Shown here: positions 16,188 to 38,486 of the stretch, piece after piece
Layout of the letters: each line of letters starts with the position of its first letter
Position numbering within the stretch: the first letter of the stretch is position 1
Notes under the pieces: model-generated
Told to the model about the DNA's origin: nothing
Database searches by the model: none
The model's input: the letters and a program-made list of their open reading frames with translations, nothing else
Translations under genes and position numbers: made by a program
Assembly (NCBI GenBank): GCA_958295855.1
Contig: OY282383.1
Coordinates: 1,404,481-1,468,480 of the forward strand
DNA length: 64,000 nucleotides
Source: an uncultured Poribacteria bacterium
GTDB taxonomy: Bacteria; Poribacteria; WGA-4E; WGA-3G
Direction of reading: 5' to 3'

Positions 16188-17642
16188 ATGACACCAAAAA
16201 TTCCTGCACCTTTCGCGAAACTCTTACGGGAAATAGGCGAAGTGGGCGGAAAGGCAACCTACCTCGTTGGCGGATTTGTCCGCGACCTTCTGCTCAAGCG
16301 GCCGAGCCTTGACATTGATATTGTCGTGGAAGGGGATGCAATCCGAGTAGCAGAAGCGATGCAGCGTCGGTGGAACGGCACCTTGCGGGTGCATACGCAG
16401 TTTAGGACTGCAACCGTCACGCCCGCAAATCCTGACTATCCAAAGGTTGACTTCGCCACCGCACGCCATGAAACTTATCAATGCTCTGGAACGTTACCTA
16501 GTGTGGAATCAGGAAGTATCTCGGACGATTTGCAGCGGAGAGACTTTTCGATCAACGCCTTGGCGATGCGGTTAGATGCTGAGGCTTTTGGAACTATTGT
16601 TGATGAAACGGGCGGGCTTGCCGACCTGACGGATGGCGTGATTCGGGTTCTCCACAAGCGGAGTTTCATGGATGATCCAACCCGTGTTTTTCGCGCATTG
16701 CGGTATGCAGGACGCTACCAATTTCGGATTGCAGAAACCGATAAGTTTCTTATTCGGGAGGCACTCCCGGTATTGGCACAGCTGAGTGGAGAACGCATAC
16801 GGAACGAGATTGACAGGGTGCTTCTGGAGGAGAACGCCCCACAGATCGTGCAACAGTTCACACAGTTCGGCATAGCTGATGCTATCTTTGCAGGATGGCA
16901 GATATCCCCCGCGTTTGCTTGCGAATTCCAGGCAGCACAGCGGGCACTAACGTGGGCATCGCAGCACCTCGCGGATGAAGCGTTTCGACCTGTCCTTGTG
17001 CGATGGATGGCATTTTTCGGCAAAACAGTGCCGATATATCAGATTGAGGCAATCAGTTTTAGGCTCGTGTTGGAACATCAACTCCAACGATTGGTGAGTC
17101 ATGCCCAAGCGTTTCGACATGGTGTCTCACTTGAAAAAGTGACGCAATCTGCCTTTGAGAAACTCGGATTCCCGCTGGCGCAGAACGCCCGGGTTGAATA
17201 TCAAAACGGGAAGTGGCACATCGTCGACGCTGAAAACAGAGCCACTTACATAATTGGGGATGGGAACCTTTATCGGGTGGATACACCGCTAACTGCCTAT
17301 CGTCAATTGACACCGATATTGGAAGCTTTAACGGAAGTTACTGCGCCGGGAAGGATTTATCAATTGCTGAAACCTTATCCACTTGAAGCGTTGGTTCTGG
17401 CGTATCTCGATGAAACTGTGCCACACCCGAAGCGCGAAAAGGTCGGGAATTATCTACAGAATTTACGGAAGATACGCCCATTTATCACGGGACGAGACCT
17501 AATTCGGTGGGGCGAAAAGCCCAGTAAAACCTTTGAGACGTTGCTGGCGGAGTTATTCGCGGCACAATTAGATGGAAAAATCACCACAAAATCGGAGGCA
17601 TATTGCTGCCTGCAGAAAGTCAAGAGAGCTGCTAATCTATAG
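16188..17642 (+). CDS. cca: tRNA nucleotidyltransferase / poly(A) polymerase family protein (CCA-adding-type head domain), paralog 1
   Basis: GGFVRDLLL...DIDIVV class II NTase motifs, RRDFSINA and DPTRVFRALRY. Confidence 0.75.
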   Translation: MTPKIPAPFAKLLREIGEVGGKATYLVGGFVRDLLLKRPSLDIDIVVEGDAIRVAEAMQRRWNGTLRVHTQFRTATVTPANPDYPKVDFATARHETYQCSGTLPSVESGSISDDLQRRDFSINALAMRLDAEAFGTIVDETGGLADLTDGVIRVLHKRSFMDDPTRVFRALRYAGRYQFRIAETDKFLIREALPVLAQLSGERIRNEIDRVLLEENAPQIVQQFTQFGIADAIFAGWQISPAFACEFQAAQRALTWASQHLADEAFRPVLVRWMAFFGKTVPIYQIEAISFRLVLEHQLQRLVSHAQAFRHGVSLEKVTQSAFEKLGFPLAQNARVEYQNGKWHIVDAENRATYIIGDGNLYRVDTPLTAYRQLTPILEALTEVTAPGRIYQLLKPYPLEALVLAYLDETVPHPKREKVGNYLQNLRKIRPFITGRDLIRWGEKPSKTFETLLAELFAAQLDGKITTKSEAYCCLQKVKRAANL

Positions 17643-33887: not shown

Positions 33888-34232
33888 ATGGGGGTGCCAC
33901 GATACCCATTCAATCCAGAGACGTGGATACCGTATCATCTCGCCACCGATGCGGAGGTGCAACTGGCAATTTATGACACCCGAGGTGCCTTAGTCCGGCA
34001 GTTAGCCCTCGGCTATCAGCCTGTGGGCCACTACGAAAGTCGGAGTCGTGTAGCGTATTGGCAGGGTATGACACCCCTGCAAAGCAGGGGACATATACCA
34101 CTGGGCAGAAATGCGGTGGGCGAACGTGTCGCGAGTGGCATCTACTTCTACACGTTCACCGCAGGGGATGTCGCGGCGGCGCGGAAAATGCTCAGCCTGA
34201 AGTCAGCTGCTCTTCCCCTTCTCATATTGTAG
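33888..34232 (+). pseudogene. orphan C-terminal FlgD-Ig-like / T9SS-type sorting-domain fragment, with an A-repeat insertion
   Basis: AEVQLAIYDTRGALVRQLALGYQPVGHY...GRNAVGERVASGIYFYTFTAGD matches the ~80-aa C-terminal beta-sandwich tail of large secreted proteins. Only the tail is present. An A hairpin at 34074-34103 lies within it. Confidence 0.4.
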
Positions 34233-34246
34233 AGCGAGGTGCGGGG

Positions 34247-34282
34247 TACTTAGTCACGCATTTTCAATGCGTGTTGAATTCG
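34247..34282. repeat. H-family hairpin repeat
   Basis: Identical to the copy at 2327-2360. Confidence 0.7.
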
Positions 34283-34422
34283 TCCGCGTTAAAAAACGCC
34301 TTGTGCCTCGCCCTATTTTTCTTCCGCTCCAGCATATTGCAACGCGTTGCGTTTCCACAGAGATTCAGTTCTCGGAGATTAGGAATTCTACAAGGAACCC
34401 CAACTACCATCAGTGAGGTTAC

Positions 34423-34728
34423 TTATTGAATATCCCGTGTTTTGTGAGGACGAATAGGTGTTTGGTGGCCCTGGCGCGGCTCGTCTGTGCTCATCTGTAC
34501 AACAATCCGCTTGTCACCCACCCAAAGGACGTTGCCTTGTGCCCGAATTTGGGGTGACGGTTCAAACTTCACCTGGCCTTCCACCACATGTAGGGTAACC
34601 TCAATAGTTTGGGGGGTACGCCGCTTTTCAATTTCGGCTAAGGTCTCAAAAAACTGGCTTCCGAGCAGCGCGTCATCGTCACGGGCGAGATACGCTTCAA
34701 ATTTTGCATCAAGGGTTTTAGGGTTCAT
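34423..34728 (-). CDS. hypothetical protein (101 aa), translationally coupled to upstream gene
   Basis: Overlaps the stop of 34718-35548 by 11 nt. No recognisable motif. Confidence 0.4.
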   Translation of the reverse strand: MNPKTLDAKFEAYLARDDDALLGSQFFETLAEIEKRRTPQTIEVTLHVVEGQVKFEPSPQIRAQGNVLWVGDKRIVVQMSTDEPRQGHQTPIRPHKTRDIQ

Positions 34729-35548
34729 GGACAGATTCTCCTAATTGTTGTCGCTGTAAGACTTTCTGCTTCCAAAGATTGTACTCAACTATGACGAAAC
34801 GATATTCAAGGAATGTTGTGCTCACCACTTGTGGGAGTTTTGATGCGGCTTGCATCAGGTCGCTACTGACAGTTTCTCCATTTATGCGGTGCCATGCTGG
34901 TTCTGTGAGCACCACGATGCGAACATAACATCGATTTTGCACATCGTACAGTCGAGTGATATAGAAATCACAAGTTAGCGGGAACGAACGCGCGACGTAG
35001 AGAAAATATGTCGTATTCTTGATATCGCCGGTCATATTTAGCAAAGTTAAGTCGCACGGCGAGAATCGTTCGGCGCGCACCCGCAAATCATGCGGTGTAA
35101 ACTGGATACCTGTCTCTGTCATGTCTCGAAAAATCGTCAGTTCAAAGATTGAACCGCGAGCAAAAGAAGCCCACCAATAGAGACAATAAGCGAGGAGGCA
35201 TTCCGTTTCAGGTGTTTTCCCTAGTGTGAAGGGTTCACAGCACAGCTGGGCGAAAATCTCCCGCGCGTAGCCTGCTTGGATCGCTGGTGCGCGGGCAGGG
35301 ACATCGGTCTCTGCGTAGAGCTCAGCGATGAACGCGTCGCTTTTTACGTCGTCAATGAAGCGGTCATAAAAGGCCTGAAAGGTCAGCCGCTGCTGATTCA
35401 ATTGCACGGTCGCCTCCGCAAGCATCGTGAATGCTTCCAACAGCGTGACCCATTCGGTTAACGAAAACCGTTCTGCTTCTCCCAAATAGCGTAGTAGCAA
35501 TGTTTTCTGTGCGTCGGTCAAGGTCTGCGTGAGTTCAACAGCGACCAA
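34718..35548 (-). CDS. hypothetical protein with possible PD-(D/E)xK nuclease-like motif
   Basis: FSPCDLTLLNMTGDIKNTTYFLYVAR fits PD-x(n)-(D/E)-x-K spacing. No other family signature is present. Confidence 0.4.
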   Translation of the reverse strand: MVAVELTQTLTDAQKTLLLRYLGEAERFSLTEWVTLLEAFTMLAEATVQLNQQRLTFQAFYDRFIDDVKSDAFIAELYAETDVPARAPAIQAGYAREIFAQLCCEPFTLGKTPETECLLAYCLYWWASFARGSIFELTIFRDMTETGIQFTPHDLRVRAERFSPCDLTLLNMTGDIKNTTYFLYVARSFPLTCDFYITRLYDVQNRCYVRIVVLTEPAWHRINGETVSSDLMQAASKLPQVVSTTFLEYRFVIVEYNLWKQKVLQRQQLGESVHEP

Positions 35549-35905
35549 GGGTTAGCCCTCCATCTTTTTCTGTGCTTTCTGCTCACTCCAGCGAGACTGT
35601 TACTCACAGGCACGTTTTAAGGAATTAACGTTGTTTATGCAGCTATTTTAAAAATCGTGTTGTTTCATGTTATGGATATCATCGCACAATTTGAAAGGAA
35701 TCGCAAGGGAATGCACGTCGCATTTGGGCGTGTCCGCCGCAAAAACGCAGTGCCATTCCGTTCTCCCGTAGGAGCAATCTCCGAATCTCGACGCTCCGCC
35801 AGTGAGGCATATCATGCAAGACTACCACCCCGCTTCGGTCAGAAGACGAGCGGAGACAGGGCATCGCCCTTGCGATTCAAGTTGGAGTCGTATAAAGAGT
35901 TCAAC

Positions 35906-37186
35906 CTACTGACGAATTAACGCCTCTGCGGCGGCGAGTGCCTCCTCGCGCGTCACAATCTCGCCATCGAACTGGTGTTCCTCAATCTGTTTCAACAACA
36001 TCCCAATTTCTTTTCCTTCTTTCATATTAAACGTACGAATCAGATCTTCGCCGGTGATGAGTTTTCCCTGCTTGAGGATAGGAAGGACATGGCGGTAGTA
36101 GGTATCCGCAATTTGTCTGAGTATTGCTTCGTCAATCGGATGCATCGCTGCGGAAAAAAGAAGCACACCCCGCCAATCGGAGGCTGTGGTTCTTAGAAAG
36201 TGGATTATCTGTTTCCGCGTCAATTGCTTTTTTGTAAGCTGTTGATGTCCCCAAACGAGACATTTCATAAACTGCACCCCTTTTCGGCTCAGTCGCAGTT
36301 GTTTGCCGACATCACCGAGGCTTCCCTGTAAGCACAGGCAGAGCTTAATCAACGAACGACGGTTGATTTCCAAACCTAATTCTTCTCTGAGATAGGCATC
36401 GATTTCAGTTTGGTAAGGGCGAAGCGGCGCAGGGATTGGGGTATCCTCAAAGGTGTCAAGCGGTTGCCAGGGCACGGGGGCTTGTCCTACACAAGGCATA
36501 ACGTGTGCTAACAGTTCTATTTCAGACATTTTTTGCAAATAAGGACTTGCCTTCTCAACGCTGAGAATCTTCATTAATTCGTCGCGTACGCGTTCCGCGG
36601 AAACGTGAGGCAATAGGTGCTGATACTTCTGTACCAAGCCGATAGCATTTTGGGACATCTCAAAATCTAGCTGTGCCGCGAATCTATAAATTCGCATCAG
36701 GCGGAGTGGGTCATCGGGGACGACTTGTTCGCTCGAAAATTGAAGCAGACGGGTTGCCAAGTCATTTTTACCACCACACGGGTCAATCACGTGAAAGGGG
36801 CTTGACATCAGTACAGATTCGAGCGAGATTGCCATTGCATTCATCGTCAAGTCGCGTAAACGCAAATCATCGATGAGGGATGCGGCTCTAAATTGTGCGA
36901 AGTCCATGCTCACGCGAGGCGTTCTCACAATAACGCGTGCAGTAGGTGGTTGCTCCTCAAGCGCAATACAAGTTGCGCCGAAGCTATCGGCAAACGTTTT
37001 GGCAAACTGGATTGCGTCCGAAGCCAGCGCGAAATCCAAATCGGCGATAGGCCGGTTGAGCAACAGATCACGTACGCTGCCCCCGACGAGGTAGAGCTGA
37101 ACACCTCGCGTCTTTGAAAAAGTGCTGAGTGCTTGAATAACTGCGTTGCTGCGTAGTTCTTGGCATGTGAATGTCGTTGTCTTCAA
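35906..37186 (-). CDS. tRNA nucleotidyltransferase / poly(A) polymerase family protein, paralog 2
   Basis: LYLVGGSVRDLLLNRPIADLDFAL, RDLTMNAMA and DPLRLMRIYRFAAQL. A second Pol-beta-type CCA-family enzyme in the window. Confidence 0.7.
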   Translation of the reverse strand: MKTTTFTCQELRSNAVIQALSTFSKTRGVQLYLVGGSVRDLLLNRPIADLDFALASDAIQFAKTFADSFGATCIALEEQPPTARVIVRTPRVSMDFAQFRAASLIDDLRLRDLTMNAMAISLESVLMSSPFHVIDPCGGKNDLATRLLQFSSEQVVPDDPLRLMRIYRFAAQLDFEMSQNAIGLVQKYQHLLPHVSAERVRDELMKILSVEKASPYLQKMSEIELLAHVMPCVGQAPVPWQPLDTFEDTPIPAPLRPYQTEIDAYLREELGLEINRRSLIKLCLCLQGSLGDVGKQLRLSRKGVQFMKCLVWGHQQLTKKQLTRKQIIHFLRTTASDWRGVLLFSAAMHPIDEAILRQIADTYYRHVLPILKQGKLITGEDLIRTFNMKEGKEIGMLLKQIEEHQFDGEIVTREEALAAAEALIRQ

Positions 37187-37251
37187 AGGTATTAGCCCTC
37201 AAGCCTCTGACGAGATACGCCTTGGATATTTCATGCCCGACTTTCTTTATC

Positions 37252-37355
37252 GAATGCACGTCGCATAAGTAAGAAATAAAAAAGTTGCTTGCTAATCACG
37301 CGCAACTTGGGCGCAGTGGTATATTACCCCTGCAAAGCAGGGGAAACTGATACCA
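37252..37355. repeat. composite E (GC-stem variant) + A hairpin
   Basis: gaatgcacgtcgcataagtaagaaataaaaaagttgcttgctaatcacgcgcaacttgggcgca is 65 nt identical to 61301-61365. It is followed by cccctgcaaagcagggg. Confidence 0.8.
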
Positions 37356-37370
37356 TTACGCCGCAAATCG

Positions 37371-37993
37371 CTATACCAAAAACTGGTTTGCACGTGCTTT
37401 TCGCCGTTGCGCTTTGCGCGAACGGAATAGGATACCATCAAGGTGCAGGTGCGTTGCATAGCCGATGAAACTTGCGACGTAGAACGGAACACCGCTACGA
37501 ACAGCATCAGGAAGTTCTTTCCATTCTACCAACGAACGAAGTAAATCCGGCAATGTATCCCACGCTGCACCCCAAGATGGATATGCCGCATAAATCGGGA
37601 TAAACAGAAACACACACGGTAGCAGCAGCATCGTCACTTTGGAGTGAGTCCACCCGCGATGTTTGCTAATAAGTGGGAGCATAGCAAACAACCCGAATAG
37701 GGCTGATTCTAGATACTTTTGATTCAGAATGAGCGCGATGTTCAACGCGAACAGCACACTATAAAATATTTTTCGGCTCTTGCTCTTAATATCCACGTCT
37801 GGCCACAGCCCGAACAGTACAGCGATGGCGAAACATCCGATGGCTTTTACAGGATTCACCACCGAAATCGTTGGATTCCAGTCTAGTGGCAATGCACAAA
37901 AGATTGAAACAGCGATAGTGGCGACGAGCGATATGATGAAAAAGGTGCTGTAGGTTACCACCCCGCCGATCCAGTGTTCACGAAACATACTCA
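37371..37993 (-). CDS. membrane-bound metal-dependent hydrolase (YdjM/DUF457 family)
   Basis: KHRGWTHS and ATHLHLDG motifs with four TM helices. The start was chosen at MSMFREHW. Confidence 0.55.
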
Positions 37994-38486
37994 TAAGAGA
38001 TAGTATAGCATATCCTGTAGGAAAATAAAAATCATTTTCTGTGGGCAAGCAACACAAGCAACACAAGGATGTGTAAATATTTTGTCAAAAGTTTGAAGTT
38101 GACTGCGGGCATTGCATAAGGTGAAATCGGGGTTGAAAACCGCTCCTACAAGAGAGAGATTATGGCTAATGTCAAAAACTTTACACACCGGCAACACAAT
38201 TTTAATTTGACTTTTCATTTCAAATATGATACAATTATATCATATTGTCGCGAATCTATCTATCCACATGCTGTAGCAGCGTTATATTTTCCCGTGATGG
38301 AGGGGCCACAGGGCGGGCTGTAGAACACGTCCGACAGGCAGATGCAGAAATAACAGTCGAACCGCTTGATGTTGATCTGGGTAAGATCGAGGCAACTATT
38401 GCCTTTTTCAAAGGGTCTAGTGGCGAGGTAATTGCGTTTTTTGAGACGCATTAATCAGCTGTTTAGCGTACCACGCAGGAATTAGC

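Follow-up and report, generated by a model that had tools for sequence, protein, structure and literature searches.

The question raised by this locus is whether a tRNA nucleotidyltransferase gene (NTase2) and the two genes that follow it on the same strand work together as one system and, if they do not, what the remaining two genes encode. The window analyzed here is a 64,000-nucleotide stretch of contig OY282383.1 from an uncultured Poribacteria bacterium, and it also carries a second nucleotidyltransferase gene (NTase1). In a preliminary description of this DNA, NTase2, a 276-aa protein with a nuclease-like motif and a 101-aa protein were grouped into an operon reminiscent of defence or toxin-antitoxin modules. 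Our reading, held with slightly less than even confidence, is that the 276-aa and 101-aa proteins form a new toxin-antidote-like cassette of nuclease and inhibitor, which sits beside an unrelated NTase2 of the CC-adding type.

Layout of the locus

The features of the window that bear on this question are as follows.

NTase2: 35906-37186, minus strand, 426 aa, TTG start; class II tRNA nucleotidyltransferase, predicted CC-adding type
Spacer: 35549-35905, minus strand, 357 nt; upstream of the two-gene cassette
276-aa protein gene: 34718-35548, minus strand, TTG start; uncharacterised family, candidate nuclease or toxic effector
101-aa protein gene: 34423-34728, minus strand, ATG start; small partner, candidate neutraliser
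NTase1: 16188-17642, plus strand; class II tRNA nucleotidyltransferase of the A-adding / Thermotoga CCA-adding clade
Segment absent from a sister genome (blastn): 34754-35910, 1,157 bp; spacer plus nearly all of the 276-aa gene
114-aa ORF: 33888-34232, plus strand; remnant of a FlgD_ig-like C-terminal domain

The ORF coordinates, the 357-nt gap, the 11-nt overlap between the ATG of the 101-aa gene and the end of the 276-aa gene, and the PCD...GDIK motif of the 276-aa protein (...SPCD166LTLLNMTGD175IK177...) were all found to be as first described. In addition, a GGAGG sequence was found 8 nt upstream of the TTG start of the 276-aa gene. On sequence grounds the 276-aa, 101-aa and NTase2 ORFs are real genes and not chance ORFs, since homologues were recovered for each (69 for the 276-aa protein by a word-indexed protein search, 32 for the 101-aa protein and >1,800 for NTase2). 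The term operon was accurate with respect to strand and adjacency, but co-transcription with NTase2 was not upheld, because (i) a promoter-like site is present at 35673-35645 inside the spacer (a consensus match only, with the number of such sites not above that of shuffled sequence); and (ii) the pair is found elsewhere without an NTase. Rfam and tRNA scans of the window returned nothing.

The 114-aa ORF belongs to the same lineage-specific insert, which is bounded by NTase2 and the VTT/DedA gene. A faint Pfam FlgD_ig match was obtained with its orthologue in a sister genome (L070), and the ORF was missing in two other Poribacteria loci (L071 and L072) and mostly deleted in a third (L075).

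The 276-aa and 101-aa genes form a conserved pair

Comparison of homologous loci revealed a conserved unit composed of a protein of ~274 aa followed by an acidic protein of ~80-100 aa. At 63 of the 67 loci a homologue of the small gene was positioned immediately downstream of the large gene, and every intact large gene was accompanied by a small gene (52/52 loci). The two genes were spaced by a median of -4 nt, with overlap in 39 of 58 pairs. The small gene is thus a true, tightly coupled partner, as the preliminary description had supposed from the overlap, and the arrangement of the 101-aa gene is, as judged from the sequence, consistent with translational coupling to the 276-aa gene. Clustering of all neighbouring ORFs identified no third recurring gene. 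Proteins of ~1,410 aa encoded downstream of the pair at two loci (L005 and L007) were considered as a shared partner and found to be unrelated to each other.

A profile search expanded the 276-aa family to about 358 cluster representatives at E ≤ 1e-3 among 1.84 billion proteins, most of them from Chloroflexota, Acidobacteriota and Poribacteria. The 276-aa protein of the window has its closest relatives in Chloroflexi (70-71% identity), and the copies from other Poribacteria are 36-43% identical to it. Ten genomes carry two to four copies of the pair, which are mutually 30-66% identical. The genes surrounding the pair are diverse and, according to Pfam, mostly housekeeping, with 132 neighbouring proteins matching 124 different Pfam families and no family matched by more than two of them. 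Defence-model matches among these 132 neighbours were sporadic (MADS, SspD, RT and MTase; one to three proteins each, counted without a background rate).

The 276-aa protein has a nearly invariant candidate active site

Searches of Pfam, NCBIfam, PADLOC and PHROG returned nothing for the 276-aa protein, neither the window protein nor any of 31 family members had a Pfam match at E ≤ 10, and a profile search against the PDB was empty. All full-length members of the family are 270-280 aa with no fusions. The E...D...(D/E)xK arrangement to which the candidate motif belongs proved nearly invariant when conservation was counted in 142 family members: E136 was conserved in 140, D166 in 141, D175 in 139 (plus one E) and K177 in 138. 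Three further residues that lie outside the PD-(D/E)xK signature were similarly conserved, namely H153 (138 members), the invariant D154 beside it, and R161 (140 members). The AF2 model of the protein (pLDDT 93.2) has a helical N-terminal half and an alpha/beta C-terminal domain that includes E136, H153, R161, D166 and D175-x-K177. Within this domain a long helix carries E136, a strand begins at D166, and the strand after it contains D175-x-K177. The helix-strand-strand-strand order places the motif residues as in PD-(D/E)xK enzymes; the helix expected after the (D/E)xK strand is atypical in that it spans only 4 residues in the model.

Structural comparison was suggestive of a nuclease fold on one side and negative on the other. 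When Foldseek was used to search BFVD, the model matched a phage protein annotated as a 'Holliday junction resolvase' (probability 0.96, TM 0.62 normalized to target length, rmsd 3.8 Å over 97 columns), and, more weakly, a protein with a PD(D/E)XK endonuclease domain and one of the DUF559 family; all of these matches had E ≥ 0.011. Against the PDB, by contrast, nothing was found at E ≤ 0.001 for the whole model or for the separately predicted C-terminal domain, the best E-value reached with the whole protein being 0.034 and that with the C-terminal domain 0.12 (to protein kinases). The top PDB matches, RecJ-Cdc45 and the MK2 kinase, were set aside as local helix-hairpin similarity (rmsd above 7 Å, TM about 0.2). 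Alignment of the family profile by hhalign with the NucS_C domain encoded at locus L005 and with Pyrococcus Hjc gave probabilities of <1% in both cases; both are tests of low power. Overall, the model and its matches lend only moderate support to a PD-(D/E)xK nuclease fold, and the 276-aa protein is a putative nuclease.

These same results leave some room for a non-nuclease, a reading that we consider unlikely. According to it, the protein would have a different or new fold (e.g., with a phosphotransferase-like centre formed by H153-D154 and D175) or would be no enzyme at all, with the small protein as its partner or chaperone. Such a reading accommodates the lack of a significant PDB match, the absence of an HMM link from nuclease families to this family, the invariant H153-D154 and R161 that are foreign to the PD-(D/E)xK signature, and the nature of the top PDB matches, which are local and fall in the protein kinase region made up of a helix, the catalytic loop and a hairpin (probability up to 0.69, for MK2). 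However, the kinase matches span only 66-82 columns at the poor fit noted above, and neither a kinase N-lobe, a glycine-rich loop nor a VAIK-type lysine is evident in the protein. Moreover, the E, D and (D/E)xK residues are located on the expected secondary-structure elements, and the BFVD search gives nuclease-annotated proteins.

The small partner is acidic

The 101-aa protein is composed of a family core of ~80 aa and a lineage-specific basic tail of 20 aa. Its family is strongly acidic, with a median pI of 4.46 and a net charge of -9. The protein had no match in Pfam, NCBIfam, PADLOC or PHROGs, none of 32 diverse small proteins matched the HTH, RHH or AbrB families, Pfam scans run over all aligned members of either protein family pointed to no family consistently even among weak matches, and no homology of the small proteins to immunity families was found. 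A repeat scan of the region containing the window spacer revealed no prominent operator-like short palindromes. Comparison with PDB profiles gave weak EF-hand-like matches (best whole-sequence E-value 0.0015, over calmodulin repeats); the per-domain E-values were 7 or higher, and an EF-hand identity was rejected because the similarity reflects an acidic helix-loop-helix resemblance. The small protein may neutralise the large one by binding to it.

Deletion variants have lost the large gene

Natural variants of the locus were identified by blastn in closely related genomes. The sister genome L070, 97-98% identical to the window, lacks exactly the segment 34754-35910; this deletion removes the large gene, along with the spacer, and leaves the small gene intact, and its junction is an in-frame fusion in which the NTase2 sequence ...ALIR continues into RQQLGESVHEP and a stop codon. 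Locus L075, which derives from the same sample as L070 (ERZ19489113), carries the same deletion, and a further deletion has truncated its small gene. A similar asymmetry was observed more widely, as an intact small gene stands next to a large gene that is broken or truncated in at least 8 GTDB loci, and no GTDB locus has an intact large gene without a small one. Assembly errors may account for some of the frameshifts seen in large genes of metagenome-assembled genomes. At one further locus (L073), an orphan chimeric small gene was found in a region rich in toxin-antitoxin genes.

The natural deletion variants point to a toxin-antidote relationship between the two proteins. We propose, tentatively, that the pair may be an undescribed chromosomal toxin-antidote or abortive-defence family, in which a nuclease-like E/H/D/D/K effector, its fold unmatched among solved structures, is encoded with a coupled acidic inhibitor. 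In this mechanism the 276-aa protein would cut nucleic acid and would be harmful when free; the small acidic protein would be translated, coupled, from the same mRNA, and would bind and neutralise the large protein in the manner of an immunity protein or antitoxin. The cassette would act as a toxin-antidote module (addiction, possibly defence), and would spread and decay independently of its neighbours. If this proposal is right, the sampled Poribacteria may represent a decay series running from the intact pair, through deletion of the effector and truncation of the antidote, to the empty site. The asymmetric decay, in which the large gene is lost first, is the only evidence, and an indirect one, for growth arrest by the putative toxin and for its neutralisation through binding of the small protein.

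Strict co-occurrence and linked decay would also be expected of an obligate, non-toxic heterocomplex. The pair could be a non-selfish accessory enzyme complex, e.g., a resolvase-like nuclease that is structure-specific or acts in repair, with an obligatory regulatory or structural subunit, harmless alone. In keeping with this explanation, the highest-ranking fold match with an annotation is to a phage Holliday junction resolvase, housekeeping genes predominate among the neighbours, and the two genes strictly co-occur and are tightly coupled. Nonetheless, we judge it to be rather improbable, as the family is rare and patchy across phyla, divergent copies occur several to a genome, presence and absence differ from strain to strain, the large gene goes first while the small one persists, and the nearest relatives are in another phylum. 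None of these features is typical of repair functions.

Spread of the cassette

The cassette is an accessory, strain-variable, horizontally acquired two-gene unit. It occupies many unrelated intergenic contexts, crosses phyla and forms a discrete insert relative to other Poribacteria, features that would also be expected of a self-mobilising element in which a homing-endonuclease-like nuclease drives its own insertion at intergenic sites. This explanation is very unlikely given that (i) the borders of the insert have no terminal repeats or target-site duplications; (ii) the copies within genomes are old and divergent; (iii) no association of the pair with introns, inteins, integrases or transposases was detected among its neighbours; and (iv) an unrelated gene remnant is also present in the insert of the window. 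No copies of the family were found in plasmids and phages by tblastn or in a scan of IMG/VR contigs.

The neighbouring nucleotidyltransferase is not part of the cassette

The preliminary description had treated NTase2, the 276-aa protein and the 101-aa protein as one architecture. The three genes are adjacent on a common strand, and the deletion in the sister genome joins the small gene directly to NTase2. However, phmmer searches with both NTases of the window detected no NTase within 10 kb of the 276-aa homologue in any of 69 loci (flanks of up to 10 kb), and in five metagenomic contexts the pair was set among unrelated genes. Conversely, in the Poribacteria loci L071 and L072 NTase2 directly adjoins the VTT/DedA gene and the cassette is absent. 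The defence-system check likewise found no support for a joint system, as no PADLOC model (PADLOC-DB v2) matched any of the three proteins at E ≤ 1. Further counterevidence is provided by the 357-nt spacer with its promoter-like site and by the identity of NTase2, a class II CCA-family enzyme whose best structural relative is a CC-adding enzyme. A single operon-encoded defence or toxin-antitoxin system of three genes is effectively refuted by the lack of co-occurrence; the trio is not one system, and a CC-adding-type enzyme lies beside an unrelated two-gene cassette.

NTase2 is instead a core housekeeping gene of the Poribacteria lineage, outside the cassette. The gene order infB-nusA-rimP-ydjM-NTase2 was conserved across the Poribacteria loci compared, and among the matches listed for NTase2 there were >120 homologue clusters of 58-96% identity, the named ones being Poribacteria.

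Two nucleotidyltransferases may divide CCA synthesis

Both NTases of the window have the Pfam PolyA_pol head domain and PolyA_pol_RNAbd. NTase2, in which PolyA_pol was detected at 1.4e-19, also matches Pfam tRNA_NucTran2_2, and its alignment displays the Pol-beta head motifs GGSVRD...DLD (motif A, pattern GGxVRD...DxD), RLRD (motif B, RRD-type) and DDPLR (motif D, pattern (E/D)DxxR). The comparison of the flexible loop suggested in the preliminary description was performed for both enzymes and revealed the loop to be absent from NTase2 and present in NTase1. The flexible-loop and B/A region of NTase2 was 14 residues shorter than that of NTase1, with 8 residues between DFA and DDL compared with 22 in NTase1, where RHE and the loop are present. 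The hallmark of bacterial CC-adding enzymes is that the flexible loop, with the B/A motif, has been lost from the stretch separating motifs A and B (PMC7014341). The best PDB match of NTase2 was the 3WFO-3WFS series (104 bits), with 3WFO aligning with the same short region; of this series, 3WFR is listed as the CC-adding enzyme in PMC4810234.

NTase1 was found to group with A-adding enzymes and the Thermotoga CCA-adding enzyme. Its closest PDB matches were 3H37 (195 bits), 4WBY (185 bits), 1VFG (180 bits) and 4WBZ, and its best NCBIfam match was the A-adding model (212 bits, compared with 68 bits for NTase2). Both NTases score far under the NCBIfam equivalog cut-offs, and the A-adding model, at 880 positions, includes a long N-terminal region that NTase1 lacks. 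The loop deletion and the 3WFO-3WFS match of NTase2, together with the A-adding match of NTase1, support the interpretation, already raised in the preliminary description, that the pair fits split CCA synthesis, with NTase2 as a predicted CC-adding and NTase1 as a predicted A-adding enzyme. On this assignment, C74 and C75 would be added by NTase2 and A76 by NTase1. The CC versus A specificities are predictions from sequence, and NTase1 could be a full CCA-adding enzyme. Poribacteria are not among the bacterial examples named in passages of two tRNA nucleotidyltransferase papers.

Comparison with known systems

Taken together, the analysis (i) removes a false lead, in that the NTase-nuclease defence trio is not a unit; (ii) assigns a likely division of labour between CC addition and A addition to two Poribacteria tRNA nucleotidyltransferases; and (iii) delimits a small uncharacterised two-gene family that comes with a confident model, a candidate active site in sharp outline and deletion variants found in nature. 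If confirmed, the cassette would extend the range of bacterial addiction and defence modules by a new pair of effector and inhibitor, which would be a modest advance with no conceptual change.

The two NTases resemble the split CCA systems of Aquifex aeolicus, Synechocystis and Deinococcus in that two class II paralogues are present per genome, and differ in scoring so far below the equivalog cut-offs. NTase2 is like bacterial CC-adding enzymes in lacking the flexible loop and the acidic B/A-motif residue, and NTase1 is like A-adding enzymes and the Thermotoga CCA-adding enzyme in keeping the RHE motif and loop.

The 276-aa protein shares with PD-(D/E)xK nucleases, such as Hjc-type resolvases and Mrr-like type IV enzymes, the E...D...(D/E)xK residues on a modelled helix-strand-strand-strand core and a predicted arrangement in which the catalytic domain is C-terminal and is preceded by a non-catalytic one. 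It differs from these enzymes in its very short second helix, in the extra invariant H153, D154 and R161, and in having no HMM link or significant PDB fold match to them.

Nucleases are paired with acidic inhibitors in barnase-barstar, in colicin DNases with their Im proteins, and in polymorphic toxins whose REase domains are matched by immunity proteins. The 276-aa family has no secretion or delivery domain and the small protein has no homology to known immunity families, which sets the cassette apart from these pairs; the cassette resembles them in that a candidate nuclease is encoded beside a small, strongly acidic protein, which accompanies every intact large gene.

A toxin-first gene order is known from type II toxin-antitoxin modules such as higBA, hicAB and mqsRA. 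Compared with type II modules, the cassette has no sequence or profile similarity to known families, its putative toxin is large (about 274 aa), and its small partner has no recognisable DNA-binding domain. Like these modules, the cassette is a co-directional, coupled two-gene unit (63/67 loci), occurs in variable chromosomal contexts and in several divergent copies, has spread horizontally, and decays with the putative toxin lost first.

Conserved unit at the locus

A preliminary description of three minus-strand open reading frames (ORFs) had proposed that a tRNA nucleotidyltransferase (NTase2), a 276-aa protein (large protein), and a 101-aa protein (small protein) form a possible defense or toxin-antitoxin (TA) module. 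The positions of the three ORFs were found to match exactly, and the 357-nt gap, the overlap of the large and small genes, and the PCD...GDIK motif of the large protein (SPCD166-LTLLNMTG-D175-I-K177) were each confirmed in the sequence:

35906-37186, minus strand: NTase2, 426 aa
35549-35905: spacer of 357 nt between NTase2 and the large gene
34718-35548, minus strand: large gene, 276 aa, TTG start with GGAGG ahead of it
34423-34728, minus strand: small gene, 101 aa, ATG 11 nt inside the 3′ end of the large gene

Each of the three ORFs has numerous homologs and is therefore not a product of chance; homologs of the large gene also start with TTG or GTG and share its N-terminus. Scanning the window for Rfam families and tRNAs gave no match. 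Within the spacer lie a perfect 12-nt inverted repeat (35698-35709, GAATCGCAAGGG; 35867-35878, CCCTTGCGATTC), with arms 157 nt apart, and a promoter-like site (35673-35645).

A word-indexed protein search gave 69 matches to the large protein, and in a search of 1.84 billion proteins 358 cluster representatives of its compact family reached E ≤ 1e-3; full-length members were all about 270-280 aa, and no domain fusions were present. Contexts were fetched for five metagenomic loci and for 60 loci in genomes of GTDB species. A small-protein homolog was directly downstream in 63 of 67 loci with a large-protein ORF and accompanied every intact large gene (52/52). The distance from large-gene stop to small-gene start had a median of −4 nt, with overlap in 39 of 58 pairs and a distance of ≤25 nt in 51. 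When the same surroundings were searched by phmmer with both nucleotidyltransferases of the window, none of 69 loci matched. Thus, the small gene is a coupled partner of the large gene, as suggested; the conserved unit is the large and small gene only (here termed the cassette), and the architecture of the trio is an accident of adjacency. No recurring third gene was found among the cassette neighbors: the 132 immediate neighbors represented 124 different Pfam families, each in at most two proteins, and were mostly housekeeping genes with occasional TA or transposase genes, while PADLOC matches were sporadic. The proteins of about 1,410 aa that follow the pair in two comparison loci (L005 and L007) were considered as a shared component and rejected, as they are mutually unrelated. 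That of L005 (L005:3863-8113; 1,416 aa) immediately follows a copy of the pair with 70% identity and carries an N-terminal Sacsin (HATPase-like) and a C-terminal NucS_C nuclease domain; together with the methyltransferase fragment and IS66 remnant beyond it, this makes the neighborhood resemble a defense island. The 1,410-aa protein at the equivalent position of L007 has no Pfam match.

Nucleotidyltransferase paralogs

NTase2 is a vertically inherited core gene, as indicated by a gene order shared between the window and three other Poribacteria genomes: infB-(ylxR)-nusA-rimP-...-ydjM-NTase2, followed by a convergent VTT/DedA gene, an approximately 500-aa protein, a family-9 glycosyltransferase, and an Rce1-like protease. 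Among the matches listed, the homologs bearing names were from Candidatus Poribacteria, and at least 120 homolog clusters (58-96% identity) had one common three-domain architecture. The ydjM-like gene (window 37371-38066, minus strand) is separated from NTase2 by a 184-nt gap (37187-37370) in the window and likewise in its sister genome (L070), whereas in two other Poribacteria (L071 and L072) it extends 4 nt into the start of NTase2; the coupling of NTase2 to ydjM therefore differs among Poribacteria lineages.

Both NTase2 and its paralog NTase1 (16188-17642, plus strand, 484 aa) contain a PolyA_pol head domain and PolyA_pol_RNAbd. The best solved relatives of NTase1 were 3H37 (195 bits), the Thermotoga CCA-adding enzyme, and then 4WBY, 1VFG, and 4WBZ (180-185 bits), the Aquifex A-adding enzyme. 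The NCBIfam A-adding equivalog was the best model for NTase1 (212 bits) and scored 68 bits with NTase2; both fall under the equivalog cut-off because the model spans 880 positions. In the paralog alignment, NTase1 displayed VDFATA-RHETYQCSGTLPSVESGSIS-DDLQRRD, which comprises the 'RHE' motif (basic/acidic), a flexible loop of full length, and RRD in its canonical form, while NTase2 and its Poribacteria orthologs read MDFA-QFRAASLI-DDLRLRD, with 14 residues fewer than NTase1 and without the acidic B/A residue. According to PMC7014341, the hallmark of bacterial CC-adding enzymes is that this loop has been lost. The short segment is common to NTase2 and its best solved relatives, 3WFO-3WFS (104 bits, head and C-terminal region both covered); 3WFR is listed as a CC-adding enzyme (PMC4810234), and the structure of the Aquifex CC-adding enzyme is described in a review (PMC3925840). 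The loop deletion, PDB relatives, and NCBIfam scores support, at the sequence level, the earlier suggestion that the paralogs are a further case of the known split into CC-adding and A-adding enzymes.

Gain, loss, and decay of the cassette

In L071 and L072 the cassette is absent and NTase2 abuts the VTT gene. The sister genome L070 is collinear with the window at 97-98% DNA identity over the region, except that 34754-35910 is missing, which corresponds to the 357-nt spacer and the large gene save its last 12 codons. At the junction (L070:6276) NTase2 is fused in frame to the final 11 codons of the large gene (...ALIR joined to RQQLGESVHEP-stop) and grows from 426 to 436 aa, and the small gene, intact save one substitution, is now coupled to NTase2. 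Another contig, from the sample that also yielded L070 (L075:3976-4325; ERZ19489113), has the identical deletion plus one of 33904-34531 that cuts the small gene after about residue 65; the two deletion alleles of this sample are thus nested. These alleles form a series from intact pair to deleted large gene, decaying small gene, and empty site. A plus-strand ORF of 114 aa beside the cassette (33888-34232) resembles a sorting domain of FlgD_ig/T9SS type from the C-terminus of a larger protein whose upstream body is missing; it is a gene remnant within the same lineage-specific insert as the cassette, is missing from L071 and L072, and is mostly deleted in L075.

The large gene was frameshifted or truncated next to an intact small gene in at least eight GTDB loci, and in L063 only its last ~43 residues were left; an intact large gene without a small gene was not found among the loci compared. 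Another Poribacteria genome (L073:4001-4309) contains a chimeric, orphan small gene but no remnant of the large one; in this chimera a new N-terminus joins a C-terminal half 75% identical to the window small protein; its neighbors are HNH, DUF4177, MazE/UPF0175, DUF3368, and CopG genes. In L061 (L061:1631-4327) the large gene is truncated C-terminally and 1.6 kb separates it from the downstream small gene; with two opposite-strand ORFs in between, the pair seems to have been split by an insertion. Ten genomes have 2-4 cassette copies each, with a mutual identity of just 30-66%. With proteins from Chloroflexi the window large protein shares 70-71% identity, compared with 36-43% for the other Poribacteria copies, which points to horizontal acquisition. 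Searches of plasmids, phages, and IMG/VR contigs yielded no copy. Overall, the cassette is an autonomous, tightly coupled two-gene unit that spreads horizontally, occupies arbitrary contexts, varies among strains that are otherwise almost identical, and sheds the large gene ahead of the small one.

Predicted properties of the two proteins

The large protein had no match in Pfam, NCBIfam, PADLOC, PHROG, or PDB sequences. It was modeled by AlphaFold2 from a 31-sequence alignment (pLDDT 93.2, pTM 0.90), and a separate model of residues 105-276 agreed with the full model (pLDDT 91.4). The modeled N-terminal half is helical with two small hairpins. In the C-terminal domain, an initial 34-residue helix leads into short strands (150-152, 167-169, and 172-176), which are followed by a helix of 4 residues, a pair of longer hairpins, and a last helix at the terminus. 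All conserved polar residues fall within this domain: among 142 full-length members, E136 and R161 are each present in 140, H153 and K177 in 138, D166 in 141, and D175 in 139 (E in one more). In the model E136 is on the long helix, D166 starts one strand, and D175-x-K177 is on the next, a placement as in PD-(D/E)xK nucleases. Foldseek against the PDB gave nothing significant: RecJ-Cdc45 ranked best (E 0.034), and kinases including MK2 aligned locally (E about 0.1, rmsd >7 Å). Against predicted viral structures, the C-terminal domain matched uncharacterized phage proteins (E 0.011-0.03, probability 0.92-0.97). A protein annotated as 'Holliday junction resolvase' was matched with probability 0.96 and rmsd 3.8 Å over 97 columns (TM 0.62 when normalized by target length); further matches were to a DUF559 protein (E 1.2) and to one named 'PD(D/E)XK endonuclease domain-containing protein' (E 0.33). 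This fold evidence is mixed, and a non-nuclease enzyme or new fold, consistent with the PDB result, is the foremost alternative though an unlikely one; with the residue placement considered, the large protein probably has a PD-(D/E)xK-like nuclease fold.

The small-protein family (alignment A6) has an N-terminal acidic helix-loop-helix and a beta-rich C-terminal part, with a median pI of 4.46 and a net charge of −9. The window protein has an additional C-terminal 20-residue basic, proline-rich tail (TDEPRQGHQTPIRPHKTRDIQ; 34423-34485) that is absent from relatives of ~81 aa, and therefore its pI is 6.3 versus the family median of about 4.5. With the A6 profile, the N-terminal ~40 residues gave weak repeated matches to EF-hand proteins (calmodulin, centrin, and troponin C), of which the best reached E 0.0015 for the whole sequence, with no significance per domain; in the window protein, D17-D18-D19...E28 is reminiscent of a Ca-binding loop at its positions 1, 3, and 12, but this loop is unconserved across the family.

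Proposed mechanism and relation to known systems

Three features, namely residues that look like an active site, an acidic partner, and decay that is asymmetric, lead us to infer that the pair may be a toxic nuclease and its neutralizing partner. The large protein would be a metal-dependent nuclease, harmful when unopposed; the small acidic protein, translated in step with it through coupling, would bind and block it; and the cassette would persist by addiction or act in abortive defense. A benign obligate nuclease complex is consistent with the strict pairing and is a rather improbable reading beside the preferential loss of the large gene. A self-mobilizing element is very doubtful. Least credible of all is the nucleotidyltransferase-linked system first envisaged, as neither nucleotidyltransferase found a match in any of the 69 loci. 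With the trio dismissed, there remains an orphan family that is well delimited and testable and has a naturally occurring decay series. As judged from sequence, the cassette lies outside every described family, each such sequence test having come out negative. In its proposed working it is likened to toxin-first type II TA modules, from which it differs in that no DNA-binding antitoxin domain is recognizable in the small-protein family, and to nuclease-immunity pairs, in which the antitoxin or immunity protein blocks the enzyme.
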